Source: a virus | Taxonomy: Duplodnaviria; Heunggongvirae; Uroviricota; Caudoviricetes | Reading direction: 5' to 3' (one strand) | Virus record (IMG/VR): IMGVR_UViG_3300045988_155182 | Length of the DNA: 64,000 bases | Part shown: positions 31,903-59,787 of the stretch, piece by piece | Position numbering within the stretch: position 1 is the first letter of the stretch | Layout of the letters: each line of letters opens with the position of its first letter | Program-made: the position numbers and the translations under genes | The notes under the pieces: model-generated | Database searches by the model: none | Told to the model about the DNA's origin: nothing | What the model saw: the letters and a program-made list of their open reading frames with translations, nothing else

Positions 31903-34900
31903 TTGAACATGGAACAGTTCAAGAAGAAAAAGCTACCGCTGTTTATTGCCGGTGCGGGTGGTAAAAAAAGCAGCAAAAGCTCCAGCCGTACACCTGTTGA
32001 AGCCGACGATACCGTAAATTCTCGTGCAATGGCCGCTATCCTCGATCTTCTTGGGGAAGGGGTAATTGGCGGCTTAGTAAATGGCGCAAGATCTATTTTT
32101 ATCGACGATCTGCCGATTGTAAATGAAGACGGTTCCTCCAACTTCAGCGGAATCACATGGGATTTTCGCGACGGTTCACAAGACCAGACTCCAATGTCTG
32201 GCTTTGATTTCGTTGAAACGCCTAAATCCGTCAATATCCAGTTAAAAAAAACACATTATGTAACGGTTTCAATCGATAACGATGAAGCTGATCGGGTTCG
32301 TGTCATCATGAAGTTTCCTTCTTTGCGAAGCATAGATAAAAAAACTGGTGACACGAACGGTACGACTGTTGAGTACAAGTTCCAGATAGCAAATGGCGAC
32401 TCAACATTTGTAGATGTGGTCGCTGAAGGTGAAAAAAGCGTTGGCATTAAGCTAACAGCAAAGAAGACCGGCGTTTATTACCGTAGCTATGAGCTGAAGC
32501 TGCCTAAGCCTGGACGAGCATACAAGGTTCGTGTGGTCCGTATTACCGATGATAACAGTAGCCAGTATCTCTATAACGATACATGGGTGGATTCAATCGG
32601 GGAAATTGTCGATACACCGATGAACTATCCAAACTCTGTTTTGGTTGGATTGAAGGTAAACTCTGAGCAATTCGGCAGCACCATGCCATCTCGCTCTTAT
32701 CTGGTGCGTGGCCTAAAAATTCGAGTACCTTCAAACTATAACGAGTCCAGTAACACTTACGCTGGGGTATGGGATGGCACTTTTAAGCTGTTGTCTTCTT
32801 CGAACCCCGCGTGGATTCTCTTTGATTTGCTGACCAATGCTCGATATGGCCTTGGTCAGTATGTGTCGGAATCTATGATTGACCTTGGCCAGTTGTACCA
32901 GATTGGTCGATATTGTGACGAAGAGGTCGATGATGGCTTTGGTGGCAAAGAGAAACGCTTTGCAATCAATACGCAGATCACCAGTCGACAGGACGCATAC
33001 CGGCTAATTCAGGATATTGCCGGAGCATTCCGCGGCATGGTGTTTTGGGCTGGTGGGATGGTTAACATCATGCAGGATAGCCCATCAGATCCGGTAATGA
33101 TGTTTACCAACTCTAACGTCAAAGATGGATTGTTTACCTATAAAGGTTCTGCGCGTAAAGATCGCCCATCCGTTGCGCTCGTAACCTACAACAACAAGGA
33201 GGACGGTTATAAGCAAAACATCGAGTACGTCGAAGATCAGGACGCAATGCGCCGTTATGGTGAGCGTAAAACAGAAGTCGTAGCATTTGGCTGTACAAGC
33301 CGAGGGCAGGCTCACCGAGTTGGTTTGTGGCTTTTATATACCGCCAGAATGGAGTCGGATGTAATTACATTTACTGCCGGCTTAGACGCGTCATTTCTGA
33401 TGCCTGGTGAAACCGTTCTGATTCAGAACAAATATCGCGCAGGCAAACGTAACTCAGGTCGAATTGTGGCGTTTACCAAAAACAGCGTCACACTCGATGC
33501 GCCTGTGTCGTTAGCCAAAGGCGGCTGCTTTATTCGAATACTGAATCAGGAAGGCAAAATCGTTGAACGCGATGTTCTTGAAACTGGCGAAAATATAACA
33601 AAAGTTACGTTTTCAAAAGCCCTGTCTTCGGCTGAAACGCCTGTTTTGAACGGCGTCTGGACTATTACAGAACCAGACCTCGAACCTATGCGCGTTCGCA
33701 TCGTTAACATCGCGCAGGGGGAAACGCCGGGTAGCTTTGACATCACCGCTGTTGAGAACAATCCGTCTAAATATGAGGCAATCGACAATGGTGCAACGCT
33801 GATCCCGCAGAATACGACGGTATTGGACCCAACTTACTCCAAGCCATCTAATCTGCAAATCACTGAAGGGACTTATCTCTCAAGCCCGGGCAACCTGTCA
33901 GTAAAACTGACTGCAACATGGGAAGGGAAATCTCCAGAGTATTGGATCAGTTGGCGACGTTCTGATGAAAACAATGTATCGAACTGGCAATCGGCGCGTG
34001 TAACCGAAGAGCAATACGAAATCGTTAATGTCGCGGAGAATGGACGCTACGACTTCCAGCTGTATGCGGTTTCATTCAACGGTAAAAAAACAGAGATTAT
34101 CAGTACCGTTTATCAGGTGTTGGGCACAATGACACCGCCGGATGCCCCAACGTCATTAACGGCCGTTGGAGACTATCGTAATGTGATACTGAATTGGGTT
34201 AATCCAGATTCGGTAGACCTTGATCACATTAATGTTTACGCATCCCAGACCAACAATCTGGATACGGCGAAACTGATCGCAGAGTCTGCAAGCACCACCT
34301 TTACACATGCTGGTCTTGGGGATAGCGAAACGTGGTATTACTGGGTTCGAGCATCGAACAAGCGAGGTATGTTAAGTCCTCCGAACTCAAACTTGGGTAC
34401 AGAGGCGACAACTCGCGATGTACTGTCGTTCCTGACTGGCAAAATTACATCTTCCGAGCTTGGTCAGGCTCTGCTTGAGGACATCAACAGCAAAGCCTCT
34501 CAAGAAGCAGTTGACGAGTTAAATGAGCATATCAACCAGAGCGTCGAATCTTTGGAGGGGGCGGTAAACGACGTTAAGGAAGATATAGCTGAATTAGATA
34601 AGCAGTTCAGCGATAACCTCGCGGATTTTGAAATAAAATTCAACGAGCGTAGCGATGCTTTGGAGAACGCACAAACCGAGCTTAAAGGTGAGGTTTCGGC
34701 AACGATCGACAAGGTCAATGAAGCGTTTGAAAAAATTGATGCTACTGATGCTGCAATTGTTGAAATCGAAAACACCGTATCTGAACACGATAAAGCTCTC
34801 GCTAATACAGTCGAGGCAATAAAGGCTGCAAGAGATGAAGCGGCGGCTCTTATTGCTAAGGAAAGCGAGGCTCGTGTTGAAGGCGATGCTGCAAACGCTA

Positions 34901-36636
34901 AACAACTGGAAGTGTTGCAGTCAACGGTAGAGGAAAGCTCCGCTGCCGTTGAAGAAATGAAAAAGACGGTTGCAGAGGTCGATCGTGCCAGTGCAGAACT
35001 GACTACGAACATTGAGGCGTTAGCCAAAACAAATATTGACCTGGCTCTTCGTCAAGATGAAGACCAGCACAAGCAGATGGTCAATAACGCGAAGATCGCA
35101 ACAACACAGAAAACCTTTGCTGATGATATGTCTGCAATGGCCACGAAGGTTGAGGAAATTCGCGTAGAAATTGGCGAAGACATTAAGGCCAGTATTCTGG
35201 AAGAGTCCACCGCTCGTGCCGATGGCGATGAAGCGTTGGCAAAGCGTGTCACTCAGCTGCAATCTAAGTTTGAAGGAGATATCAGCGCGGCGATTAGTAC
35301 AGAGCAGGAGGCTCGTACATCTGCCGATGAAGCTCTGACGACACAGATCACTCAGCTTGAGTCGAAAGTAAGCAACGATATCGTCGCAGCCATTAAGGAA
35401 GAGCAAGAAGCCCGAGCAACGGAAGATTCGGCTCTGGCAAGCCAGATCACCCAACTTCAGGCAAAGGTTGATGATGATATTTCTGCTGCAATACGTAGTG
35501 AGCAGGAGGCCCGAGCAAGCGGGGACTCTGCGTTAGCCAAACAAATAAACCAGCTTCAGTCAAAGGTTGACGGTGATATATCCGCTGCCATCACTCAGGA
35601 GCAGGAGGCCAGAGCAAGTGCTGACCAGGCGCTCTCACGAGAAATTAACAGCCTGCGAGCACAAACCGGAACTGATATTGCCGCAGCGGTTGCTGTAGAG
35701 ACAAAAGCAAGGACTGATGCCGATAGTGCATTGTCTACCCAGATTACGTCTCTTACAGCAAAAGCTAATGATCTCGAGGCGTCTCTTGCCAGAGAAACAA
35801 CGGCTCGTGCAGATGGTGATACCGCTTTAACAAAAGAGGTTTCAAATTTAAAAGCACAGACAGCGAAAGATATTAGTGCGGCCGTTGCAGTTGAAACGCA
35901 GGCTCGAACTGATGCTGACTCGGCGTTGTCGTCTCAGATCACCAAGCTGACCTCTCAATACAAAGAGGATATTAAAGCGGCTGTAGCAACCGAAACGAAA
36001 ACGCGTACAGAGCAAGATGCTGCATTGGCGACTCAAATCACAAACTTAGAGTCTCAAACGGCAGCCAACATTTCCGCGGCGGTAACAACTGAAACGACAG
36101 CGAGAACGCAGGCAGATAATGCTCTGAGTGGGCGAATCGATACTCTGAAAGCAGAGGTGGATGGAAATACCGCGACAATTCAACAGCAGGCAACAGCTAT
36201 TGCTGATACCAACAAAAAAGTATCAACCGCGTGGACGTTGAAAATGGAGACTTCAACGAGCGGAGGGCAGAAGTATGTTGCCGGTATTGCGCTTGGTATT
36301 GACACCACTGGGCTATCTCAGTTTTTGGTTCAGGCGGACAGGTTTGGTTTGGTCAACTCTGTTAACGGGAAGATCACAACGCCATTTGTTATCGAAAACA
36401 GTATCGCCTATATGAATGGAGCGTATATCAAGGATGGCACAATCACCAATGCAAAAGTAGGCGATCTGCAATCTACCAATTTTGTTAGCGGTAGATCTGG
36501 ATGGCGGTTCGGCAAAAATGGAACGCTTGAGATCAACGGTAATAGCGGCGGCAATGGGCGATTGGTTATAAATGGTCAGCGGATTGACGTTTATGACGAT
36601 AACAACGTCCTACGAGTAAGAATTGGCCGTCTGTGA
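31903..36636 (+). CDS. Central tail tip protein, lambda gpJ-like, with expanded coiled-coil repeat region
   Basis: N-terminal two-thirds match remembered lambda J segments (NSEQFGS, VPSNYN, IWDGTFK, FGCTSRGQAHR.GLWL, KYVAGI..G); at least nine tandem 33-aa repeats. Confidence 0.85.
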   Translation: MNMEQFKKKKLPLFIAGAGGKKSSKSSSRTPVEADDTVNSRAMAAILDLLGEGVIGGLVNGARSIFIDDLPIVNEDGSSNFSGITWDFRDGSQDQTPMSGFDFVETPKSVNIQLKKTHYVTVSIDNDEADRVRVIMKFPSLRSIDKKTGDTNGTTVEYKFQIANGDSTFVDVVAEGEKSVGIKLTAKKTGVYYRSYELKLPKPGRAYKVRVVRITDDNSSQYLYNDTWVDSIGEIVDTPMNYPNSVLVGLKVNSEQFGSTMPSRSYLVRGLKIRVPSNYNESSNTYAGVWDGTFKLLSSSNPAWILFDLLTNARYGLGQYVSESMIDLGQLYQIGRYCDEEVDDGFGGKEKRFAINTQITSRQDAYRLIQDIAGAFRGMVFWAGGMVNIMQDSPSDPVMMFTNSNVKDGLFTYKGSARKDRPSVALVTYNNKEDGYKQNIEYVEDQDAMRRYGERKTEVVAFGCTSRGQAHRVGLWLLYTARMESDVITFTAGLDASFLMPGETVLIQNKYRAGKRNSGRIVAFTKNSVTLDAPVSLAKGGCFIRILNQEGKIVERDVLETGENITKVTFSKALSSAETPVLNGVWTITEPDLEPMRVRIVNIAQGETPGSFDITAVENNPSKYEAIDNGATLIPQNTTVLDPTYSKPSNLQITEGTYLSSPGNLSVKLTATWEGKSPEYWISWRRSDENNVSNWQSARVTEEQYEIVNVAENGRYDFQLYAVSFNGKKTEIISTVYQVLGTMTPPDAPTSLTAVGDYRNVILNWVNPDSVDLDHINVYASQTNNLDTAKLIAESASTTFTHAGLGDSETWYYWVRASNKRGMLSPPNSNLGTEATTRDVLSFLTGKITSSELGQALLEDINSKASQEAVDELNEHINQSVESLEGAVNDVKEDIAELDKQFSDNLADFEIKFNERSDALENAQTELKGEVSATIDKVNEAFEKIDATDAAIVEIENTVSEHDKALANTVEAIKAARDEAAALIAKESEARVEGDAANAKQLEVLQSTVEESSAAVEEMKKTVAEVDRASAELTTNIEALAKTNIDLALRQDEDQHKQMVNNAKIATTQKTFADDMSAMATKVEEIRVEIGEDIKASILEESTARADGDEALAKRVTQLQSKFEGDISAAISTEQEARTSADEALTTQITQLESKVSNDIVAAIKEEQEARATEDSALASQITQLQAKVDDDISAAIRSEQEARASGDSALAKQINQLQSKVDGDISAAITQEQEARASADQALSREINSLRAQTGTDIAAAVAVETKARTDADSALSTQITSLTAKANDLEASLARETTARADGDTALTKEVSNLKAQTAKDISAAVAVETQARTDADSALSSQITKLTSQYKEDIKAAVATETKTRTEQDAALATQITNLESQTAANISAAVTTETTARTQADNALSGRIDTLKAEVDGNTATIQQQATAIADTNKKVSTAWTLKMETSTSGGQKYVAGIALGIDTTGLSQFLVQADRFGLVNSVNGKITTPFVIENSIAYMNGAYIKDGTITNAKVGDLQSTNFVSGRSGWRFGKNGTLEINGNSGGNGRLVINGQRIDVYDDNNVLRVRIGRL
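35170..36150 (+). repeat. Tandem 99 bp (33-aa) coiled-coil repeats inside the J-like gene
   Basis: Repeated DISAAI..EQEARASADSAL..QITQLQSKVDG units in the translation. Confidence 0.7.
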
Positions 36637-36669
36637 TGGTGGAAAAAAAATTTTATATCGGTAAAAATA

Positions 36670-36686
36670 GGTAAGTATTTACTTAA
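36670..36686. repeat. GGTAAGTA-TT-TACTTAA palindrome
   Basis: Seen directly. Confidence 0.5.
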
Positions 36687-36729
36687 TGGCGGGCAAGGAT
36701 AACCCGCCAAATCAAGGAGCATATTCAAC

Positions 36730-39700
36730 ATGTGGTACAGGGAAGGTACTATCACATTTACACAGGGTAGCAATACTCTGGTTGGGGCAGGGACAGCCTG
36801 GAACGTAACAGCTAATGGTGTGTTGCCGGGGATGATCGTCATTGGCCCCGACAATAAGCTGTATGAGATCAAGCGCGTAATAAGCGATACGAATATTGTT
36901 CTCTCAGAACCTTATACCGGCGAAACTCAGTCTGAGGTTCCGTGCCGAATCATTACGACCTATGAAGGCGACTTAACACAGTTTAGCGCGCGCTTTACTG
37001 CGCTAATGTCGCGTATGTCGGCTGATTCCAAGTCCATGCGCAGTTGGTTGACTGCGCTGGATGAGGTGACAATCGAGCGTGAAGACGGTACAGAAGTAAC
37101 CGTTAAGCCGCTAATGCAGATCGTCAACGAGCACAACGAAAACGTTGAGTGGTATAAAAATAACACTGACGCGATTGATGCTGCTGGCGACAAAGCTCGT
37201 GAGGCGGCGGCCAGTGCTGCCGCAGCAGCAGAAAGCGCCAATACCGCTGGAGAAAAAGCCTCTCAAGCGTCTCAAAGTGCATCCGCTGCGGCATCCTCAC
37301 AAAGTGCCGCAAGTGCGAGTGCAACTGCTGCGAAAAAATCTGAAACGAATGCCGCAGCGTCACAACAATCAGCAGCCACTTCTGCATCCACCGCGACCAC
37401 GAAAGCGTCAGAAGCTGCCACCTCAGCCCGGGATGCGGCGGCCTCAAAAGAGGCAGCGAAATCATCAGAAACGAACGCATCCTTGAGCGCCAGTAGCGCA
37501 GCTTCCTCGGCAACGGCGGCAGGAAATTCCGCGAAGGCGGCAAAAACGTCCGAGACGAACGCCAGGTCTTCTGAGACGGCAGCGGGACAGAGCGCCTCAG
37601 CTGCGGCAGGCTCAAAAACAGCGGCTGCGTCGTCTGCCAGTGCCGCGTCAACAAGTGCCGGGCAGGCCTCAGCCAGTGCCACCGCCGCCGGAAAATCGGC
37701 AGAAAGTGCCGCATCGTCTGCTTCAACAGCCACAACGAAGGCTGGCGAAGCCACTGAACAGGCCAGCGCAGCAGCGAGGTCTGCTTCCGCAGCGAAGACA
37801 TCCGAAACGAACGCGAAAGCGTCGGAAACCAGCGCAGAATCCTCAAAAACGGCTGCCGCATCGTCCGCCAGTTCGGCGGCGTCATCGGCATCATCTGCGT
37901 CTGCTTCAAAAGATGAGGCGACCAGACAGGCGTCAGCAGCGAAGGGCAGTGCCACGACGGCATCCACGAAAGCAACAGAGGCGGCAGGCAGTGCGACGGC
38001 AGCATCTCAGAGCAAAACTGCTGCTGAATCCGCTGCGACCCGTGCGGAAGCTGCTGCTGATCGTGCTGAAGAGATTGCCGGTGCAGTTGCGATGGAAGAC
38101 GCAAGCCTTACAACTAAAGGTGTTGTGAAACTTAGCAGTGCTGTTGATAGCACCAGTGAATCGCTGGCCGCAACGCCAAAAGCAGTTAAAGCAGCCAATG
38201 ACAATGCGAATAGCAGGGTGCCATCTAACCGAAAAGTTAACGGAAAAGCACTGACTGCGGATATAACATTAACGCCGAAAGATATTGGTACTTTAAATTC
38301 AGTAACGATGTCTTTCTCTGGCGGGGCTGGGTGGTTCAAACTGGCTACGGTTACCATGCCACAAGCGAGTTCCATCGTTTACATCGCATTGATTGGTGGC
38401 GCTGGTTACAACGTCGGTTCCCCACATCAGGCAGGCATTTCAGAACTGGTTCTACGAGCAGGCAATGGAAACCCCAAAGGAATTACCGGGGCTTTGTGGA
38501 AGCGTACAGCCGTCGGATTAACGAATTTCGCCTGGATCAACACATCCGGCGATACATATGATATTTACGTTGAGATTGGCAATTATGCGACTCGTGTAAA
38601 TATCCATTGGGATTGTACTGCAAATGCGACAGTTTCTATTTATACATCGCCAACATATTCAGCGAGTAAGCCTTCCAGCGTTACCGATGGTGTTGTTTAT
38701 ACGATGTATAGCTCACATCAGAAACCGACGCCGTTAGATATTGGAGCACTGCCAACAACCGGAGGAACAGTTTCAGGTCCGTTGTCTGTTACAGGTGGAT
38801 TAACTGGTTCATTGAATGGTAATGCAAGTACAGCCACGAAATTGCAGACGGCAAGATCTATCGGTGGAGTTGTTTTCGACGGTTCTGCAAATATTAACCT
38901 TCCAGGTGTAAACACTACGGGTAATCAGAACACCACTGGTAATGCTGCAACTGCTACAAAACTTCAGACGGCAAGAACTATCGGCGGCGTGAGCTTTGAT
39001 GGTACTGCGAATATTAATTTGCCAGGTGTTAATACGACTGGTAATCAGAACACAACGGGCAACGCGGCTACTGCTACGAAGTTGCAGACTGCGCGTACTA
39101 TCAATGGGGTGTCGTTTGACGGCTCGGCAAATATTGCCTTGTCGCCAGCAAATATAGGTTGCCCGGCATCTCCTACTGGTTGGCTTGTAACAGGTGATAA
39201 TGGAGCTTCAATAACAACAGAGCAATTAGTGACTCTGCTACGAGATAATGGTGCTTTTAGTGTAAAGGCATGGATAGCGCGTTGTGCCTGGGCGTATGCA
39301 AATAGTGCATCCATACCAGACAGCGAAACAGGATGCGGCATTATTCCACTGGCTGGCGCAGTTATTGAGGTATTTAATAAAGGCAGTAGCTCAAACAATT
39401 ATACGATTCGTATAACAACGGCAACAACGACAGGTGTCTCTGGCGCACTCACTAATGCGGAGTTTGTCTATGTGTTTAATGGGACGACCTATTCACCAGG
39501 ATGGCGCAGAGCGTATAACACTAAAAACAAGCCTACTGCGGCTGATGTCGGAGCTTTACCACTATCTGGAGGGGCGTTAACTGGCGGATTAACTGCTGCT
39601 GGCGAGATAATTTCCAAATCGGCGAATGGTCTGCGCATTGCCTACGGAAACTACGGATTCTTTATCCGAAATGATGGATTGGACACATATTTCATGCTAA

Positions 39701-41181
39701 CAGCATCAGGAGACACATTAGGTTCATGGAACGGTTTGCGACCTATTACAATTAATAATACCAGCGGTTCTGTGTCCATTCGTAATGGACTCAATGTTAC
39801 TGGCGGCATCAATGGTAGTTTGAACGGTAATGCTGCAACTGCAACAAAACTGCAAACAGCACGCACAATAGGCGGAGTGTCATTCGATGGCTCCGCCAAT
39901 ATCAACCTGCCGGGTGTAAACATTGCTGGTAACCAGAACACTACCGGTAATGCAGCGACAGCGACCAAGTTGCAGACAGCATGTACTATCAACGGCGTCT
40001 CGTTTGATGGTTCTAAAGATATTGAACTTAACCCACGGTCTATAGGCACGATCAACTCCACAACAATGTCATTCAGCGGTGGTGCTGGTTGGTTCAAATT
40101 AGCAACGGTAACCATGCCACAGGCGAGTTCTGTTGTTTCAATTACGTTGATTGGTGGCTCGGGATTTAACGTGGGGTCACCTCAACAGGCAGGTATATCT
40201 GAACTTGTTTTGCGTGCAGGTAATGGTAATCCGAAGGGGATTACTGGTGCTTTATGGCAGCGCACATCGACAGGGTTTACAAATTTTGCCTGGGTCAATA
40301 CATCTGGTGATACTTACGATATTTACGTTGCAATCGGAAATTATGCGTGGCGTGTAAATATTCAATGGGATTATACCAGTAATGCCAGCGTGACGATTCA
40401 TACGTCACCAGCATATTCTGCTAATAAGCCGGAAGGGTTAACGGACGGTACAGTTTATTCACTCTATACGCCATCAGAGCAGTTTTATCCGCCTGGCGCA
40501 CCAATCCCGTGGCCATCAGATACCGTTCCGTCTGGTTATGCCCTGATGCAGGGGCAGACTTTTGACAAATCTGCCTACCCGAAACTTGCAGCCGCTTATC
40601 CGTCAGGCGTGATCCCTGATATGCGTGGCTGGACGATTAAGGGCAAACCCGCCAGTGGTCGTGCCGTATTGTCTCAGGAACAGGACGGCATTAAATCGCA
40701 CACCCACAGCGCCAGCGCATCCAGTACGGATTTGGGGACGAAAACCACATCGTCGTTTGATTACGGAACCAAATCCACGAATAACACCGGGGCGCATACC
40801 CATAGTATTAGCGGGACTGCAAATAGTGCAGGTGGGCACCAACACCATAGTTCTGGACCATATGCGAATTCTAATGATGGTGATCTCTTTCCTAACGGTT
40901 ATACCCAGGTTTCAGCCACAAACAAACCAGTTGTACCACGGCAAGGTGGCCAAGGTATGGCCCGTTTATCAGGGAAAACATCATCAGATGGAGCACATAC
41001 CCACTCGTTATCCGGTAGTGCCGCAAGCGCAGGTGCTCACGCACACACTGTTGGTATTGGTGCTCATACGCACTCCGTTGCGATTGGTTCACATGGACAC
41101 ACCATCACCGTTAACGCTGCTGGTAACGCGGAAAACACCGTCAAAAACATCGCATTTAACTATATTGTGAGGCTTGCATGA
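36730..41181 (+). CDS. Side tail fibre protein (Stf-like) with Ala/Ser-rich KTSETNA-type repeats, internal duplications and His-rich C-terminal tip
   Basis: [13 protein letters not shown] repeats; repeated [52 protein letters not shown] units; GAHTHS motifs near the C-terminus. Confidence 0.85.
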
Positions 41182-41978
41182 TTACGCTCATTCTTTCTGC
41201 ACCAGTAACAGAAATGGCTGAAGCATTTAAGCGGGTATTTGCAAACGCAGATAATGTGAATATTGTCGGAAAGCCATTTGAAACAATCAGAGAATTTGAC
41301 TGCATGGTAAGTGCGGCAAATAGTTTCGGCCTGATGGATGGCGGCGTTGATGCCGCCATTACCGCATTCTTCGGTACTCAGTTACAGTCCCGCGTTCAGA
41401 ATCATATTCTTCGTGAATATCTAGGCGAGCAGCCTGTAGGTTCTGCATTTGTTATTGAAACGGGGCATAATCATCACCCCTGGCTGGTACATGCGCCAAC
41501 AATGCGTGTTCCGCTGACAATTGACGGAACAGACTCTGTATATAACGCAACCTGGGCCGCTTTACTTGCCATCTTTCAGCACAATAAAAACGCAACGACA
41601 GACAGGAAAATAAAGACGGTGGTATTCCCTGCAATGGGGGCCGGATGTGGTCAGGTTCCGTTTGAAAGCGTTGCCCGGCAGATGAAGCAGGCGTGGGATA
41701 ACTTTAATAAAAAAACAGAAGCAATTAACTGGGAATATGCACAATCTCGCCAGTCGGCAGTATTTAGCACATATGCATACTGTCCAGGTAATTCTGTTTG
41801 CCGTTATGCGGATACTAAATATATTGGCTGTGGCGATTCCCGGACGTATTGCTCACGTTCAGGGCAGATCTGTATTAACCCTGAACATCAGGCTGATGAT
41901 GTACTGATACAACATCAGGCTAATAACCGGTTTCGCCCTGGTTCGCATATACACCGGATTAATCCGGAAAATACCTGA
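41178..41978 (+). CDS. Macro-domain protein (ADP-ribose binding/hydrolase fold) with Cys-rich C-terminal tail
   Basis: [18 protein letters not shown] and [22 protein letters not shown] correspond to the two macro-domain signature segments (NAAN..L.GGGGV..AI and FP.ISTGIYG.P). Confidence 0.7.
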
Positions 41979-42082
41979 GGCAATATCGCCACTGGCGCAT
42001 ATAATCACGGAAGGGGCATCACTGTTGGTGCTCACACCCATACACTCAATAAACAACATACTGTCTTTGATATTAAGTAGAG

Positions 42083-42670
42083 GTGAACATGGACTTCACA
42101 ATGAGTGAACAACCACGGACCATAAAAATTTATAATCTGTTGGCCGGAACCAATGAATTTATTGGTGAAGGTGATGCATATATTCCACCTCATACGGGGC
42201 TGCCAGCTTATTCTACGGATATAGCGCCACCGGATGTACCTGCTGGCTTCGTGGCCGTATTCAACAGCGAAAATAAATCATGGAGTCTCGTTGAAGACCA
42301 CAGGGGTAAAACGGTCTATGACGTGGAATCAGGGGACGCGTTGTTTATTTCTGAACTTGGGCCATTACCGGAAAATGTCACCTGGTTATCACCGGATGGG
42401 GAATATCAGAAGTGGGACGGCACATCCTGGGAGAAGGATGAGGAAACAGAAAAATTGTTTCAGGTACGGGAAGCGGAAGAAACAAAAAAAAGTCTGATGC
42501 AGGTAGCCAGCGAGCACATTGCGCCACTTCAGGATGCTGTAGATTTGGAGATTGCAACGGAGGAAGAAGCATCGTTGCTGACTGCATGGAAGAAGTATAG
42601 AGTTTTATTGAACCGCATTGACACATCAACGGCACCGGATATTGACTGGCCAACAATACCAGCAGAGTAA
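42083..42670 (+). CDS. Tail fibre assembly protein (Tfa)
   Basis: Size and C-terminal W.KYR.LLNRID....DWP..P pattern typical of lambda-type Tfa. Confidence 0.75.
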
Positions 42671-43834: not shown

Positions 43835-44086
43835 ATGCTAGGCAGCCTGATGACAAAGCTAAAAGTTGCTTTGATTACGCTGGCTGCCGTTCTTTTCGTT
43901 CTGGTCGGCGCTTACACGATGGGCGGAAATGCGGCGCGACGAGCAATGGAAGAGAAGGCAAAACAGGAAGACAGGAAACGACTTCAAAACACAGTGAAAG
44001 TGGTGAATGAGACGAGCAGTAAAATACGTCAGAAAGATGCTTCTGCCGTTCATCGTGAGTTGTATGATAAGTGGGTGCGTCATTAA
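43835..44086 (+). CDS. i-spanin (Rz-like): N-terminal TM plus charged coiled-coil
   Basis: LKVALITLAAVLFVLVGAY TM followed by K/E/R-rich segment. Confidence 0.6.
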   Translation: MLGSLMTKLKVALITLAAVLFVLVGAYTMGGNAARRAMEEKAKQEDRKRLQNTVKVVNETSSKIRQKDASAVHRELYDKWVRH

Positions 44087-44222
44087 ACCACAAACCACCA
44101 GCGTGTTGTTCTGCGATGGGGCTGAGCCTATCTATATCAGCAATAATGATGTAATGACTGAAGAAACCGAACGCCAAATCCTTTTTCACAATACGATGGG
44201 AGAGAGGGTTTGTGGTTGGTGA
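44007..44222 (+). CDS. o-spanin (Rz1-like lipoprotein) overlapping the 3' end of the i-spanin gene in another frame
   Basis: Signal peptide with lipobox ISGC; classic overlapped Rz/Rz1 arrangement. Confidence 0.55.
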   Translation: MRRAVKYVRKMLLPFIVSCMISGCVIKPQTTSVLFCDGAEPIYISNNDVMTEETERQILFHNTMGERVCGW

Positions 44223-44254
44223 TGTCGAAGTTCCCCTCAAATGAGGGGAACACA

Positions 44255-44776
44255 TTATTCTTCGAACAATTTTTCGATAGATTTTGTAGGATAGAACAAA
44301 GAACGCTCGTTGTTACCAACCAGCTGGATAAAGCCTAAACTTTTATAAAACGCCTTGGCTTTGTCATTTAACGCCTCAACGAAAAGTCCATGAATGCCTA
44401 CAGCAAGAGATGCATTGTACACAACGCGCATTGCATGTGTTACAAGCATTGAGCCAAATCCTTGACCTTGAAGGGACTTGTCCAAAGCCAGCCTACCCAA
44501 AGTAACACTTGGAACATTCCGATAAGGAACCTTCTTTTGTTTGCTTCTTGAAGGTAAGGACTCCTTTTCAAAACAACTACCTGACAAAGTGTAATATCCT
44601 AACACTTTTGGCCTTTCTTCTTGAGTGCAAAGCACATAAGCACGAAGAATTTTTCCCTCATGCTGCCTTTTTAAGTGGTTGGCTAAAAAGGCGTTTAGTG
44701 ACTCTTCGCCGCAATCAAAACCGTTTAGATCATAATCTTTCTCTCCAGAGAAAATCTCTATCGTTGTATTGCTCAC
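44255..44776 (-). CDS. GNAT-family acetyltransferase toxin (TacT/AtaT/KacT-like)
   Basis: GNAT motif RLALDKSLQGQGFG; about 170 aa; paired with upstream RHH gene. Confidence 0.75.
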   Translation of the reverse strand: MSNTTIEIFSGEKDYDLNGFDCGEESLNAFLANHLKRQHEGKILRAYVLCTQEERPKVLGYYTLSGSCFEKESLPSRSKQKKVPYRNVPSVTLGRLALDKSLQGQGFGSMLVTHAMRVVYNASLAVGIHGLFVEALNDKAKAFYKSLGFIQLVGNNERSLFYPTKSIEKLFEE

Positions 44777-44783
44777 GAGTAAA

Positions 44784-45053
44784 CTACTCCATGCTTTTCA
44801 GACGATCAGCAGCTCGTTTCAGCTTGTCGTTCGGTGCCGGAGGATTGCTTATAGCGTCCATAACCAGATTCCAGGATTCTTCATTCAGAACTAGTCTACG
44901 GTGTTGCTCTATAACTTTCACGGCACGTTCAGATGCACTGCTAACCATAAACTGAGTAATGCTCTGGTTAGACATTGCGGCAGCTTCCTCGATGATGCTT
45001 TTATCGTCATCGGTTAATCTCAAATCGATGCGCTGCTTTTTTAGTGCTGACAT
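44784..45053 (-). CDS. RHH antitoxin (TacA/DUF1778-like) of the GNAT toxin
   Basis: ORF track 44784..45092; small protein immediately upstream of and co-directional with the GNAT gene. Confidence 0.7.
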   Translation of the reverse strand: MSALKKQRIDLRLTDDDKSIIEEAAAMSNQSITQFMVSSASERAVKVIEQHRRLVLNEESWNLVMDAISNPPAPNDKLKRAADRLKSME

Positions 45054-45319
45054 GTATTCCTCCTGATGGCCGTGATGTAGGAAGGCCATCAATCTCCTCT
45101 GTTCAAACTGAGTTTTCGACTCAAAAATTACTTTAAAAGGCTATAGCCCATTACGTGTGCATTATCAAATTGTGTACGGCATAACACCGTACTTGTAATA
45201 TAGAGGTCATTGTTACTTTTTTCAACAGACAAATACAAGCTATGATTGCCAATTGTTAATCACAACCTACCATTTAACCTTTACACCGCAGCCGTAGGCA
45301 TTTAGGCTATATCACATAT

Positions 45320-56122: not shown

Positions 56123-56197
56123 GATGGTGTAGCTCAGCGGTAGAGCAGTTGGCTGTTAACCAACTGGTCGGTGGTTCGAATCCACCCACCATCGCCA
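56123..56197 (+). tRNA. tRNA-Asn (anticodon GTT)
   Basis: Acceptor stem gatggtg/caccatc, anticodon loop cTGTTAa, T-loop GGTTCGAATCC, encoded CCA. Confidence 0.8.
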
Positions 56198-56199
56198 AT

Positions 56200-56275
56200 G
56201 CCGGTTTAGCTCAGTTGGTAGAGCGCCTGCCTTGTAAGCAGGATGTCAGCGGTTCGAGTCCGTTAACCGGCACCA
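56200..56275 (+). tRNA. tRNA-Thr (anticodon TGT)
   Basis: Acceptor stem gccggtt/aaccggc, anticodon loop cTTGTAa, T-loop GGTTCGAGTCC, encoded CCA. Confidence 0.8.
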
Positions 56276-56498
56276 ATACAACGATAAGATCATTACGGTT
56301 AATCGTCGTTCATGTGCACAATGACTGGTCGAAAGGTAGTGATCTTACCGTTGTGGTGGATTCGCAGACTGATGCGATAGCTTTCTTGGATGTTAGGGAA
56401 ATGCGGCCGCAAATCTTCCCTTTCGCGAGCGGTGATCGTCCGTAGTCCTAATTGGCTGCACCGTATGCCGGAGATTCAGTACCGGCCACCACAACGGC

Positions 56499-56585
56499 CG
56501 GAGAGTAGGGAGCATGGTGCTCAAGCGGTCTTGAAAACCGTCCCATTGCGCAAGCGATGATGGTTCGATTCCATTACTCTCCGCC
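56499..56585 (+). tRNA. tRNA-Ser (anticodon TGA), type II with long variable arm
   Basis: Acceptor stem ggagagt/actctcc, anticodon loop cTTGAAa, long variable arm, T-loop GGTTCGATTCC, encoded CCA. Confidence 0.7.
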
Positions 56586-56586
56586 A

Positions 56587-56665
56587 GACACAGCGTTGAG
56601 CGGTTTGGCCTTTTAATCAACTCGATTAAGACTCCGCTAACATAAACCAGACCGCTCAACGCTGT
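56587..56665. repeat. Perfect 16 bp inverted repeat (cacagcgttgagcggt ... accgctcaacgctgtg) with about 46 nt loop, directly after tRNA-Ser
   Basis: Seen directly. Confidence 0.6.
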
Positions 56666-56740
56666 GATAGACAATTACGGCAGACGTTCTTAACCATAGC
56701 TTGCTAACATCCTAGCAACACTTTTTTAAGCGCAAAATCC

Positions 56741-56766
56741 AAAGGGGCTTCGGCCCCTTTTTTGTT
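56741..56766. terminator. Bidirectional terminator (aaaggggc-ttcg-gccccttttttt)
   Basis: Seen directly; sits between the tRNA cluster and the convergent minus-strand gene. Confidence 0.6.
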
Positions 56767-57673
56767 AATGATTGCCTAGATATGATTTTAGTTCTTCTTT
56801 AATGATTAGTGAGTATTCTAAAATATCACTTAGTAAAAATTTTGCTCTGTTAAAATACCCACCAAAAGAACCTAAAATTTCAGATGGTCTTTCTAAGAGC
56901 ATCACAATATCATCTTCTTGCACTTTAGTAATGTAACTTCTAACAGCTCTTTCTCCAATAACTCTTTTCTTACCGTTTATTTCAGATTCATCTAAAACCT
57001 TATTTATAAATTTTTCTGTATCATTGAATCGTCCACTATTGTGTACTATTGTATGTCTTAGTAGTTCAATTAGCTTGATGTTAAAGCGATAGTTTTTGCC
57101 AATCTTGTTGTTTGTTTCTATCTCTTTGAAGCCAGGTATTTTATTTCTGAAAATTTTAGTTATTTTTTTCGATGGGTTACTTTTTGCTTTTAATAATCTG
57201 TAATAAACTTCCCTTTTCCCAATTTCATCATCTTCAACCTTACCAAAATCACTTGAGGACCATAAATCATTTCGAACACATACAGTATAGACATATATTG
57301 CCTCAATATAGTCTTCCAGTAACTCATAGGCTTCAGTAATAACCCACTGATATTGTTTATTTTTCAAAGTATTACACAATCTTATCTTTTCTTCTAAATC
57401 AATGGCGCTGTTACCTATCTCTAATGTTGAACCTGTATATGGGTTTGAACATAAATGGCGAGCTAACGTTGTGCCACACTTAATCTTAATAGTTTCATTA
57501 ATATTAATAATAGTATCTGGATTCTGTGCATACTCCACTTCTTTAAGAAGACGTTTTATATTTTTCTTTGTTGTATCATTTATCTGATTTAAATAGTCAA
57601 AAAGTAAAGATATTTCTTCTCTAAATTCGTTGTATTTATTTTCAATCAAAGAATCAGACAACTTACCAATCAT
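56765..57673 (-). CDS. HEPN-like / Abi-family candidate protein (302 aa), AT-rich
   Basis: Rx4H motif (LLRHTIVHNSG) in the C-terminal half; only minus-strand gene in this block; markedly AT-rich, Lys/Asn/Ile-rich. Confidence 0.45.
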   Translation of the reverse strand: MIGKLSDSLIENKYNEFREEISLLFDYLNQINDTTKKNIKRLLKEVEYAQNPDTIININETIKIKCGTTLARHLCSNPYTGSTLEIGNSAIDLEEKIRLCNTLKNKQYQWVITEAYELLEDYIEAIYVYTVCVRNDLWSSSDFGKVEDDEIGKREVYYRLLKAKSNPSKKITKIFRNKIPGFKEIETNNKIGKNYRFNIKLIELLRHTIVHNSGRFNDTEKFINKVLDESEINGKKRVIGERAVRSYITKVQEDDIVMLLERPSEILGSFGGYFNRAKFLLSDILEYSLIIKEELKSYLGNH

Positions 57674-57758
57674 TAAAACCTCTATAAAATGTACATTTCA
57701 AGGCAATCCTTACTGTAATCTATTGTCGTAATCACTTCAATTGTTTACTAGTCAATCA

Positions 57759-57780
57759 ATAAGTTACTACATACTTATCA
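57759..57780. repeat. TAAGTA palindrome variant (aataagttactacatacttatc)
   Basis: Seen directly. Confidence 0.45.
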
Positions 57781-57846
57781 AAAAAATCTGTTTGTAGTAT
57801 AGTCTGATATGTTCGAATCAATATTTATAAAGGTATTTGTTAAGTT

Positions 57847-58092
57847 ATGACGATCACTATCTACGGACGAGATAACTGCTCATACTGCAAACGTGCGGTC
57901 GAGCTGGCGAAGCAACTAAAGGGACATGGCTACGGTGATTATGAGTACATCGACATCACCACTGCCGGTATCGACAAGGAAAAACTAAGTGAAATTGTTG
58001 GTAAACCGGTAGAGACTATCCCCCAGGTGCTGATCGATGGCCAGCCGATTGGCGGATACACAGAACTGGCTGCATACGTCAGCACCCTCTGA
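57847..58092 (+). CDS. Glutaredoxin / NrdH-like redoxin (81 aa)
   Basis: CSYC active-site motif near the N-terminus; size. Confidence 0.7.
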   Translation: MTITIYGRDNCSYCKRAVELAKQLKGHGYGDYEYIDITTAGIDKEKLSEIVGKPVETIPQVLIDGQPIGGYTELAAYVSTL

Positions 58093-58096
58093 TTTT

Positions 58097-58125
58097 AACG
58101 GCTCACAGGAGCCGTTTTTATTCCC
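58097..58125 (+). terminator. Rho-independent terminator (aacggctc-acag-gagccgtt + TTTTT)
   Basis: Seen directly. Confidence 0.6.
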
Positions 58126-58172
58126 ACCAAACTCACTCCCATTTCCCTTAAAATTCAAAAAACAACGTCAAA

Positions 58173-58205
58173 ATGATTCCATACCTACTATGTATGGAAT
58201 CATTG
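58173..58205. repeat. Perfect palindrome aatgattccatac-ctactat-gtatggaatcatt; the 13-mer also occurs near 54903 and 55920
   Basis: Seen directly; about 100 bp upstream of the integrase gene. Confidence 0.55.
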
Positions 58206-58302
58206 CTGAAAATGAGTTACTTTTACTCTTGATCCTATAAGAATCTATGCCTAATATACTGTTTACTTATACAGTGCATCGGCGTAACTCGGTGATTGTC
58301 AT

Positions 58303-59406
58303 ATGAAAAATAGCTTTGACAGAGCACGCGCTGCGGAGAACACCTCAAAAGAGGCGATAGAGTATCTCGAAAGAGCATCTCAAATGCAGGCCGTTATGAT
58401 CTCCCAGGTCAGCAATGACATGAGATTCTCGGACGCATTCATGTTATTCACTCGCTTATCTCTGCTGATAACCAGACGTCGGCCAGAGATCGCTGTTCAT
58501 TGTATTTTGATACATGTTTTGCCGCACATTGCCGATGTAAAAGTAAGTGACATTAATAGGTTCATGGTGAACCAACTGGTCAACCCACTAATACTGGATG
58601 GCAAAATTGTTATGGGCCGCCGCGTTTTCTCTCTGATGAAGCAGTTCCTTAGCTGGTGCGCCTTCCAGGGGATGATAGACGTGTCACCGTTGAACGATAT
58701 GTCACTTAACAAAGTTGCCGGTGGCGCAAAGCCCACACCTCGCGAGCGGAAGCTGACCGACGCAGAGGTATGGGTGTTCTGGAATATATGGGACTACTTC
58801 AATGTGTGTGCTGGTACAAAATGGGCGGCCAGGCTATGTCTTGTATCCGCAAGACGACCTGACGAAGTACTGCGGGCTAAAAAAAGTGAGTTCAATCTTA
58901 AGCGTGGGGTTTGGAATCAAGGCAAGAGGAACAAATCTGCCCGTGAGCATTCTCTGCCTTTAAGCTCATTAATGCGCACTTGTATTGAAGAGTTGTTCGA
59001 ATATGGTAAAGACAGCCAGTGGCTCGTGCCTTCGAATAAAAAAATCGGGAAAGACCTTCCTATGTCTAAAGTGGCAATAGCCCAGGCATTACGTCGTATT
59101 CTGGAACGACCAGAACTGATGGAGCTTGAGCCATTTACACCCCGAGATTTGCGCCGTACTGCGCGTAGTTACTTCCCAGCATTAGGCATAAGCCAGGAGG
59201 TATCACGTAAAATCATGAACCACAGTCTTGAGGGGATAGATCGGGTCTACGACCGGCACGATTATATGGACGAGATGCGAGACGCCTTAGAAAGTTTCTC
59301 GACGTACATCGCATCAATCGTAGAGCAACCGGATTTAGACGAAATTGACCACAAATTTAAGGGAGATCGTCTATCAACAGAGCTTATTCGTGTAAATTTT
59401 TCATAG
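58303..59406 (+). CDS. int: Tyrosine-type integrase/recombinase
   Basis: C-terminal catalytic pattern (RDLRRTARSYF ... HSLEGIDRVYDRHDY) consistent with the R..H..R..Y tyrosine recombinase signature. Confidence 0.8.
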   Translation: MKNSFDRARAAENTSKEAIEYLERASQMQAVMISQVSNDMRFSDAFMLFTRLSLLITRRRPEIAVHCILIHVLPHIADVKVSDINRFMVNQLVNPLILDGKIVMGRRVFSLMKQFLSWCAFQGMIDVSPLNDMSLNKVAGGAKPTPRERKLTDAEVWVFWNIWDYFNVCAGTKWAARLCLVSARRPDEVLRAKKSEFNLKRGVWNQGKRNKSAREHSLPLSSLMRTCIEELFEYGKDSQWLVPSNKKIGKDLPMSKVAIAQALRRILERPELMELEPFTPRDLRRTARSYFPALGISQEVSRKIMNHSLEGIDRVYDRHDYMDEMRDALESFSTYIASIVEQPDLDEIDHKFKGDRLSTELIRVNFS

Positions 59407-59787
59407 AGACTTTATGGCCTCAACAACCTTTTGTGATGCGCCTTTCTCTTTACCGAATCGCTCGTTATATGCAGCAAGAACCTGTTTTTCGTCCTCGTTA
59501 AGAGGAGCAGTGCCTTCTTTGTATAAAAATGCTGCGAGTTCGGGTTGGCGTTCTTCCAGCACCATCATCATAAGACGACTTGGCTCAATGCCCAGTGCCA
59601 GCGCCAGCGGACGAACCTTATCGATAGGCAAAGGAATTTTGCCGCTTTTAATTAAAGAAAGGTTGTTGGCGTTTTTATACCCAATTGTTTTGGCTATCTG
59701 GGCCTGGCTCATAGGTGAGGATTCAATCAACCCTGCGATAAAAGCAGCGTAGCGACTTTCTATAAATTCAATCTTGTTATCAGACAT
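59401..59787 (-). CDS. XRE-family HTH transcriptional regulator (cI/Cro-like)
   Basis: HTH-like QAQIAKTIGYKNANNLSLIKSG; convergent with and overlapping the integrase 3' end. Confidence 0.65.
   Translation of the reverse strand: MSDNKIEFIESRYAAFIAGLIESSPMSQAQIAKTIGYKNANNLSLIKSGKIPLPIDKVRPLALALGIEPSRLMMMVLEERQPELAAFLYKEGTAPLNEDEKQVLAAYNERFGKEKGASQKVVEAIKSL

Follow-up and report, generated by a model that had tools for sequence, protein, structure and literature searches.

Locus, cassette and host element

The 64,000-nucleotide stretch of Caudoviricetes DNA analysed here (IMG/VR record IMGVR_UViG_3300045988_155182; referred to below as the window) contains a 302-aa open reading frame (ORF) that runs from ATG to stop on the minus strand at positions 56765-57673. 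As its product is predicted to resemble HEPN domains, the gene is referred to as the HEPN-like gene. It lies between a tRNA cluster (tRNA-Asn(GTT), tRNA-Thr(TGT) and tRNA-Ser(TGA), 56123-56586, plus strand) and the glutaredoxin gene grx (57847-58092, plus strand), which is followed by a tyrosine integrase (58303-59406, plus strand) and a 128-aa repressor (59401-59787, minus strand). The GC content of the gene is 0.293 and that of its third codon positions (GC3) is 0.228, against 0.42-0.50 and 0.39-0.57 respectively in the adjoining genes and a GC content of 0.461 in the window. An initial annotation had placed this ORF on the minus strand between the tRNA cluster and glutaredoxin and had described it as far more AT-rich than its flanks, with which both the coordinates and the composition agree. 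It had also been taken as the only minus-strand gene nearby. Among the non-overlapped long ORFs between ~29.8 and 64 kb this holds with the exception of the repressor, all others being on the plus strand.

The gene and its borders carry the following features:

56765..57673, minus strand: coding sequence of the HEPN-like protein (302 aa), identical to WP_001755525.1 and matching phrog_35492 (unknown function) over its full length
57679-57683, minus strand: Shine-Dalgarno AGAGG, 5 nt ahead of the ATG, read from the sequence
57735-57740 (TTGAAG) and 57712-57717 (TACAGT), minus strand: weak candidate sigma-70 promoter with a 17-nt spacer, inferred from 8/12 positions and below the scanner threshold
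57674..57825, minus strand: 5' regulatory region of the cassette, which diverges along with the gene and is wholly different in a plasmid with other cargo
56741..56760, no strand assigned: GC-rich hairpin AAAGGGGCTTCGGCCCCTTT followed by a T-run, the backbone terminator after the tRNA cluster and left junction of the cassette
~56763..57825, no strand assigned: exchangeable cargo cassette (gene and upstream region) in the slot from tRNA-Ser to grx, as defined by junction alignments across plasmids with different cargo

The terminator hairpin is strong and is located 4 nt past the stop codon of the HEPN-like gene. It may also end the minus-strand transcript, where it would read as GGGGCCGAAGCCCC followed by TTTGGATTTT, and could in this way serve both strands. 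The description of the gene as bracketed by terminators is thus only half right, because the other terminator-like site (58097-58116) is found downstream of grx, and the sequence on the gene's 5' side reads as a divergent promoter region of 173 nt without a terminator. In RefSeq, WP_001755525.1 is labelled 'hypothetical protein', and neither this accession, the accession of a 296-aa allele nor the PHROG identifier was found to be mentioned in the searchable literature.

The HEPN-like gene is horizontally exchanged cargo in a precisely bounded cassette. At the left junction, the backbone is ~100% identical through the tRNA-cluster terminator and the break occurs right after the T-run in all five of the aligned states, and at the right junction homology returns ~25 nt ahead of the grx ATG. 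The slot was observed in at least six states with common left and right junctions:

minus strand: the 302-aa HEPN-like gene
minus strand: a 296-aa allele of the HEPN-like gene
minus strand: an unrelated 420-aa gene (WP_112915089.1, 31% GC; locus L020 6380-7642 of plasmid p3PT-111kb), in exactly the same slot and orientation
plus strand: two genes of 193 and 262 aa (locus L021 6403-7804 of plasmid NZ_CP024271.1), in the same slot
strand not given: a Gp49-family gene alone
Klebsiella: a 304-aa allele (minus strand) together with PhoH and Gp49

The Klebsiella allele that was checked (phage pJN2-26) occupies the same slot in the same orientation. Between the window and the related plasmid pECAZ155_2, the HEPN-like proteins are 59% identical whereas the flanking proteins are 98.6-100% identical, which together with the sharp borders of the cassette and the range of slot contents bears out the proposal that the gene is a horizontally acquired moron. 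When the segment 56600-57850 was used as the query, 244 E. coli plasmids matched, 29 of them over at least 80% of the segment; a wider query matched 365 genomes and found the gene in the same 29, so that it is carried by ~8-12% of the related E. coli plasmids. In PLSDB, the HEPN-like protein was found in 58 non-mobilizable plasmids (29 from Escherichia, 27 from Klebsiella, one from Citrobacter and one from Pseudomonas), where the listed records measure 104-126 kb except for the Pseudomonas plasmid (189 kb). Its alleles there fall into discrete classes of ~100, 56-59, 43 and 38-42% identity.

Two of the alternative occupants were characterised further. The 262-aa protein has an N-terminal nuclease domain that matches PADLOC PDC-M68A (E 6e-25), CBASS endonuclease effectors and Shedu SduA, which makes the two-gene cargo of NZ_CP024271.1 a candidate defence system in the same hotspot. 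The 420-aa protein of p3PT gave no Pfam or PADLOC match and was rejected as a homologue of the HEPN-like protein, as no relationship was found. A limited literature search found no description of a cargo slot after the tRNA-cluster terminator of SSU5-type phage-plasmids.

The backbone on the left of the cassette (56587-56765, plus strand, after tRNA-Ser) is predicted to form a strong RNA structure with a minimum free energy of -64.2 kcal/mol (z = -7.55 against shuffled sequences). It consists of a 20-bp stem (56589-56608 with 56647-56666), a second hairpin and the terminator. This segment is ~100% conserved across all slot states and gave no match in an Rfam search. It could be an element for processing or termination of the tRNA transcript, or a recombination site that sets the cargo junction. 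A second cargo hotspot was observed between grx and the integrase (58093-58302); it is empty in the window and holds in relatives (L001 6589-7617 and L008 443-2718 were compared) a 202-aa gene with a YafO toxin, or additionally colicin M-like and microcin-related genes.

The element carrying the HEPN-like gene is an SSU5-type phage-plasmid of ~110 kb, which is extrachromosomal. The initial annotation had regarded the gene as prophage-encoded, and this has to be given up because ~110-kb E. coli plasmids and the 'Escherichia phages' named CMS-2020a and Cyrano match the window, because the DNA ligase encoded in it and the ligase of Salmonella phage SSU5 are 91% identical, and because pECAZ155_2 carries a full siphovirus structural module together with ParB, RepB and replication genes. 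Clinical E. coli, Klebsiella and Salmonella commonly harbour phage-plasmids of the SSU5/pHCM2 type, and these elements are able to carry resistance genes. In SSU5 itself the whole accessory segment is absent. The tRNA cluster also varies among the relatives: tRNA-Asn is the sole annotated tRNA of the cluster in SSU5 and Klebsiella pJN2-26, tRNA-Tyr is present in pGD31-F25 and Esc10 and absent from the window, Cyrano, p3PT and pECAZ155_2, the spacing from tRNA-Thr to tRNA-Ser is variable, and tRNA content differs even between near-identical plasmids.

Other parts of the element were observed to be variable as well. In the comparison of the window with pECAZ155_2, tail genes are 74-89% identical or absent whereas the backbone is 98-100% identical. 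The tail-tip and tail-fibre region (31903-42670, plus strand) is mosaic: its 1483-aa fibre ORF (36730-41181) is covered to at least 80% by no PLSDB plasmid, the best coverage being 62-63% at ~90% identity, and pECAZ155_2 has a single 4052-aa tail-tip fibre gene in place of this ORF. Co-variation of the HEPN-like allele with the tail module, which is visible in this one plasmid pair, was rejected as a general rule, as carriers and non-carriers have the same tail-fibre type. Furthermore, a second minus-strand cargo patch (43875-45092) is located between the tail-fibre genes and an AAA ATPase. It encodes a TacA-like antitoxin (44784-45092; PF08681, E 9e-26), a GNAT acetyltransferase (44255-44776), probably a toxin of the TacT type that acetylates tRNA, and a 126-aa protein of unknown function. 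In pECAZ155_2, no match to the TacA-like or GNAT gene of the window was found and the 126-aa gene is 41% identical.

Family conservation and predicted fold

The HEPN-like proteins form a previously undescribed family without an entry in Pfam, NCBIfam or PADLOC. A word-indexed search found only 8 clusters, and an exhaustive HMMER search with a profile yielded 453 cluster representatives (clusters at 50% identity), 142 of them with E <= 1e-30. Nearly all members stand alone, have a length of ~290-310 aa and match end to end. Members examined in their genomic context were observed to be solitary, with a GC content of 28-32% in backgrounds of 39-58%. An E. coli chromosomal homologue (32% identical) is the only gene of an islet (31% GC) that lies between tam and uxaB (L012 7001-7927), where the gene is split into two ORFs in several genomes (156 and 128 aa, or 196 and 121 aa), which suggests recurrent inactivation. 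Other relatives are found in a P2/186-like prophage, adjoining int, in an integrative and conjugative element (ICE), on the opposite strand between tra genes, and at chromosomal sites in one Thermodesulfobacteriota genome and one further metagenome contig.

Conservation was taken from an alignment of 128 homologues with a mean column identity of 24%. E117, R206 and H211 are invariant, and N105, Q107, W110, Y127, W138, E186, N189, H207, V210 and G214 are conserved in at least 90% of the sequences, with H207 reaching 97%. The conserved positions cluster in two blocks, which span residues 101-120 and residues 201-214. The residues and motifs that matter for the fold are encoded as follows:

57041..57058, minus strand: RHTIVH (residues 206-211), candidate HEPN Rx4H motif, at the C-terminal end of helix 195-212
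57323-57325, minus strand: codon of E117, candidate acidic active-site residue of helix 2, from conservation and the predicted helix
57293..57373, minus strand: second conserved block, residues 101-127 (N105, Q107, W110, Y116, E117, E120 and Y127), in helix 93-133

The AlphaFold model of the 302-aa protein (pLDDT 94.5, pTM 0.90) has a predicted core of four helices (residues 2-50, 93-133, 195-212 and 276-300) into which a beta-hairpin (69-91), a helical insert (134-194) and an alpha/beta insert (213-275) are placed; the three inserts could have a sensing or regulatory role in this model. In the predicted structure, the core is an up-down bundle similar to solved HEPN domains. Structure comparison with two independent models placed HEPN proteins at ranks 1-2 and gave them at least about a fifth of the top 60 places, far above the share of HEPN structures in the PDB. 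About a dozen or more further HEPN structures occur in each top 60, such as AF0298, YutE, TT1696, sacsin, SO_3166, AbiA and KNTase. Csm6, Csx1, MtlR and HepS were among the top 60 for the first model only and LAS1L for the second only.

The positions of the conserved residues were compared with those described for HEPN domains (PMC3710099), in which Rx4-6H closes helix 3 and extends into the loop that precedes helix 4, the arginine is followed by a polar residue (N, D or H), helix 2 contributes a conserved acidic residue, usually within Ex3[KR], and helices 2 and 3 are separated by an insert. Here, the invariant R206 and H211 close helix 195-212, the residue after the arginine is H207, and the two conserved helices are separated by four short ones within residues 134-194. 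The invariant E117, placed by secondary structure, is located in helix 93-133, where the +4 position is D or E and not K or R. The initial annotation had based its HEPN call on RHTIVH in the C-terminal half. This motif is indeed present at residues 206-211 and is the sole Rx4-6H of the protein, while Rx4H also occurs in 17 of the 48 long ORFs of the window and 0.21 occurrences are expected from the composition of the protein itself. In a single sequence the motif is therefore chance-level evidence, and it gains meaning only because it is invariant across the family.

Proposed function and rival explanations

We consider it probable that the family is a new one at the level of the HEPN superfamily, and we put at slightly better than even the chance that the HEPN-like protein is a stand-alone, expanded HEPN RNase which serves as a single-gene abortive-infection or exclusion module and is carried as swappable cargo. 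By analogy with HepS and other HEPN enzymes, we infer RNase activity, dimerisation, toxicity, a trigger and a defence phenotype for this protein. The weak promoter of the gene would give low-level synthesis as long as the phage-plasmid is resident, and by dimerisation or oligomerisation E117, R206, H207 and H211 would come together in a composite, metal-independent RNase site. A cue brought by an invading phage or rival element, acting on one of the variable inserts, would be needed to activate the protein. The activated protein would then cleave RNA (tRNA, mRNA or rRNA), so that translation is arrested, replication of the competitor is aborted and the invader is excluded. Solitary carriage on four kinds of mobile element, location in a hotspot, allelic replacement and occasional disrupted copies fit a conflict gene. 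The indications for abortive infection or exclusion are circumstantial, namely the hotspot location, the allelic diversification, the AT-richness and the carriage on mobile elements.

Several results weigh against this assignment. The HEPN relationship proposed by the initial annotation found no backing in profile searches, as Pfam, NCBIfam, PADLOC, PDB profile and hhalign DUF3644 comparisons linked these proteins to none of the HEPN families. The sole Pfam match of the query was DUF3644 (E 2.9, residues 182-223), and among the 128 members DUF3644 was found in three (best E 0.0065) and HEPN_Apea in one (E 0.022). The query had no match in PADLOC-DB 2.0, where the members gave only noise-level matches (Csx1/Csm6 in two, 0.0033; Cas13a in one, 0.013), and the NCBIfam search with the query returned nothing. 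Single-sequence and profile searches of the PDB found no HEPN protein; their best sequence matches, CmlS and SNAP-25, were rejected as spurious, and a PHROGs 'anti-restriction nuclease' match (E 0.0027, residues 20-60) is weak and coiled-coil-like and was judged to be noise. Alignment of the family by hhalign with a 44-sequence DUF3644 profile, built from EC042_2821 of E. coli 042, had a probability of 2.8%; in a single-sequence hhalign, RDQAVH of DUF3644 was aligned on RHxIVH. As for the structure, the resemblance of the predicted four-helix bundle to solved HEPN domains stands, and a Foldseek search against the PDB returned generic helical bundles only, with nothing at E <= 0.001. In addition, the upstream acidic motif is not of the typical Ex3[KR] form, H207 and H211 (i, i+4) could equally form a metal site with E117, and the truncated or split copies fit a costly gene or neutral decay alike. 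The HEPN-like protein is outside every curated HEPN family.

Such a metal site would be at the centre of a non-HEPN helical bundle, for example a metal-dependent hydrolase or a regulator with H207-x3-H211 and E117, whose likeness to HEPN is convergent or generic. We regard this as unlikely, since HEPN structures hold the first ranks and a sizeable share of the top matches for both models, and an invariant arginine is a HEPN hallmark for which a His/Glu metal site offers no obvious role. Furthermore, the positional HEPN rules hold together if the candidate E117, which is without the typical form, is taken as the acidic residue, and the missing profile links are less telling because HEPN families are mutually undetectable by simple profile searches; in the defining study they were connected by HHpred at probabilities of only 75-98% (PMC3710099). 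If the protein is accepted as a HEPN RNase, it might still serve the element itself, either in counter-defence, for example by breaking down cyclic-oligonucleotide signals or host defence RNAs, in taking over the host in lytic growth, or in processing of the adjacent tRNA precursor. This is distinctly unlikely in our assessment. Cyrano, Esc10, p3PT, F8111, P1, P7 and D6 have the same tRNAs and lack the gene, which is therefore not needed for them. Homologues in non-phage contexts (the ICE and the islets of E. coli and Thermodesulfobacteriota) are hard to fit with a phage-lytic or tRNA-processing role, and the gene is oriented opposite to all lytic and replication genes and has its own promoter region, as is typical of lysogeny-expressed morons.

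A toxin of an addiction or toxin-antitoxin-like module would stabilise the plasmid state, with an unrecognised antitoxin that might be a small protein or antisense RNA, or else an autoinhibitory stretch of the same polypeptide. The initial annotation had noted no obvious partner, and this was upheld, as no neighbour is common to the phage-plasmid, prophage, ICE and chromosomal contexts and none of the neighbours of unknown function that were checked is a paralogue or recognisable partner. The candidates rejected on these grounds were a 314-aa gene of the P2-like prophage, a 562-aa gene of Thermodesulfobacteriota, and genes of 459, 211 and 130 aa elsewhere. A dedicated partnership with the adjacent tRNAs was likewise rejected as a general rule, since the same sets of tRNAs are found both in carriers of the gene and in elements that lack it. 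Across seven contexts neither an MNT gene nor any other partner is conserved, and a search of the cassette for an Rfam match, a tandem repeat, or a small or antisense ORF conserved across alleles found none. Moreover, chromosomal one-gene islets would not need addiction, and the limited spread of the gene among the related E. coli plasmids argues against a core maintenance function. An addiction toxin is thus very unlikely. A bolder version of the exclusion hypothesis would see the locus as a polymorphic determinant of self and non-self, in SSU5-type phage-plasmids, where each allele of the single-protein HEPN sensor-effector would sense a component of rival phages or sister phage-plasmids, spare its own element, as HepS does by way of tail-tip variants, and cut tRNA anticodon loops, the adjacent tRNA-Asn, -Thr and -Ser might buffer the damage, and the allelic series of 100/59/43/38% would set inter-element incompatibility groups; by analogy it is conceivable, and we give it a very low probability.

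The factors that govern competition among phage-plasmids of the SSU5/pHCM2 type, and between them and other phages, are poorly known. The analysis adds a compact family (the 453 cluster representatives) with a high-confidence model and three invariant candidate catalytic residues, as well as a cargo slot with precise borders that SSU5-type elements have downstream of the tRNA cluster. If the HEPN-like protein is a one-gene sensor-effector RNase, it would be one more family in the HEPN defence repertoire, and its alleles, a natural series within a backbone that is otherwise isogenic, would help to map the specificity of the trigger. Should the protein be something other than an RNase, the invariant E...RHxxVH site on a helical bundle would mark an unknown class of enzyme on mobile elements. 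To a specialist, a new HEPN-like family in a phage-plasmid hotspot is plausible more than surprising.

Comparison with known systems

Single-gene HEPN abortive-infection proteins are known from temperate elements, among them AbiD/F, AbiJ, AbiU2, AbiV, ApeA and HepS. AbiD/AbiF (Abi_2), AbiJ, AbiU2, AbiV and ApeA gave no Pfam or PADLOC match to the query and none that was convincing in the 128 members. The minimal HEPN toxins of HepT/MntA (type VII toxin-antitoxin) were compared through HI0074 (1jog), 8xdj, 7ae2 and SO_3166 (5yep). The HEPN-like protein is more than twice as long as these, is without the RX4HXY signature and has no Pfam HEPN or DUF86 match, and the adjacent MNT nucleotidyltransferase antitoxin is absent from the phage-plasmid, prophage, ICE and chromosomal contexts of its family. 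Among Pfam families, DUF3644, as in EC042_2821 (PF12358; Anantharaman et al. 2013), alone gave recurrent weak matches, which fall over the motif region. EC042_2821 is also cargo, in its case of an integrase-associated island; it has a C-terminal restriction-endonuclease domain and a restriction-modification context, whereas the HEPN-like protein has neither and its 302 aa form one bundle with inserts.

The cargo slot resembles the anti-phage hotspots of P2 and P4 described for temperate elements by Rousset et al. 2022 (PMC9122126) in that a fixed and bounded backbone position holds alternative, unrelated AT-rich cargo, one of them a defence-type nuclease. Unlike these hotspots, it is found in SSU5-type phage-plasmids past the tRNA-cluster terminator, and most of its cargo is without known function. 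HepS of Salmonella Gifsy-1 offers the precedent for one prophage HEPN protein that both senses and kills: it is an abortive-infection anticodon nuclease that is triggered by the tail tip protein J and targets the tRNAs for Thr, Ile and Ser (PMC13043305). HepS has 218 aa, whereas the HEPN-like protein has 302 aa with three large inserts, and the residue after the arginine is N in HepS and H in the HEPN-like protein. The two have no detectable sequence relationship and HepS is outside the top 60 of the better model.

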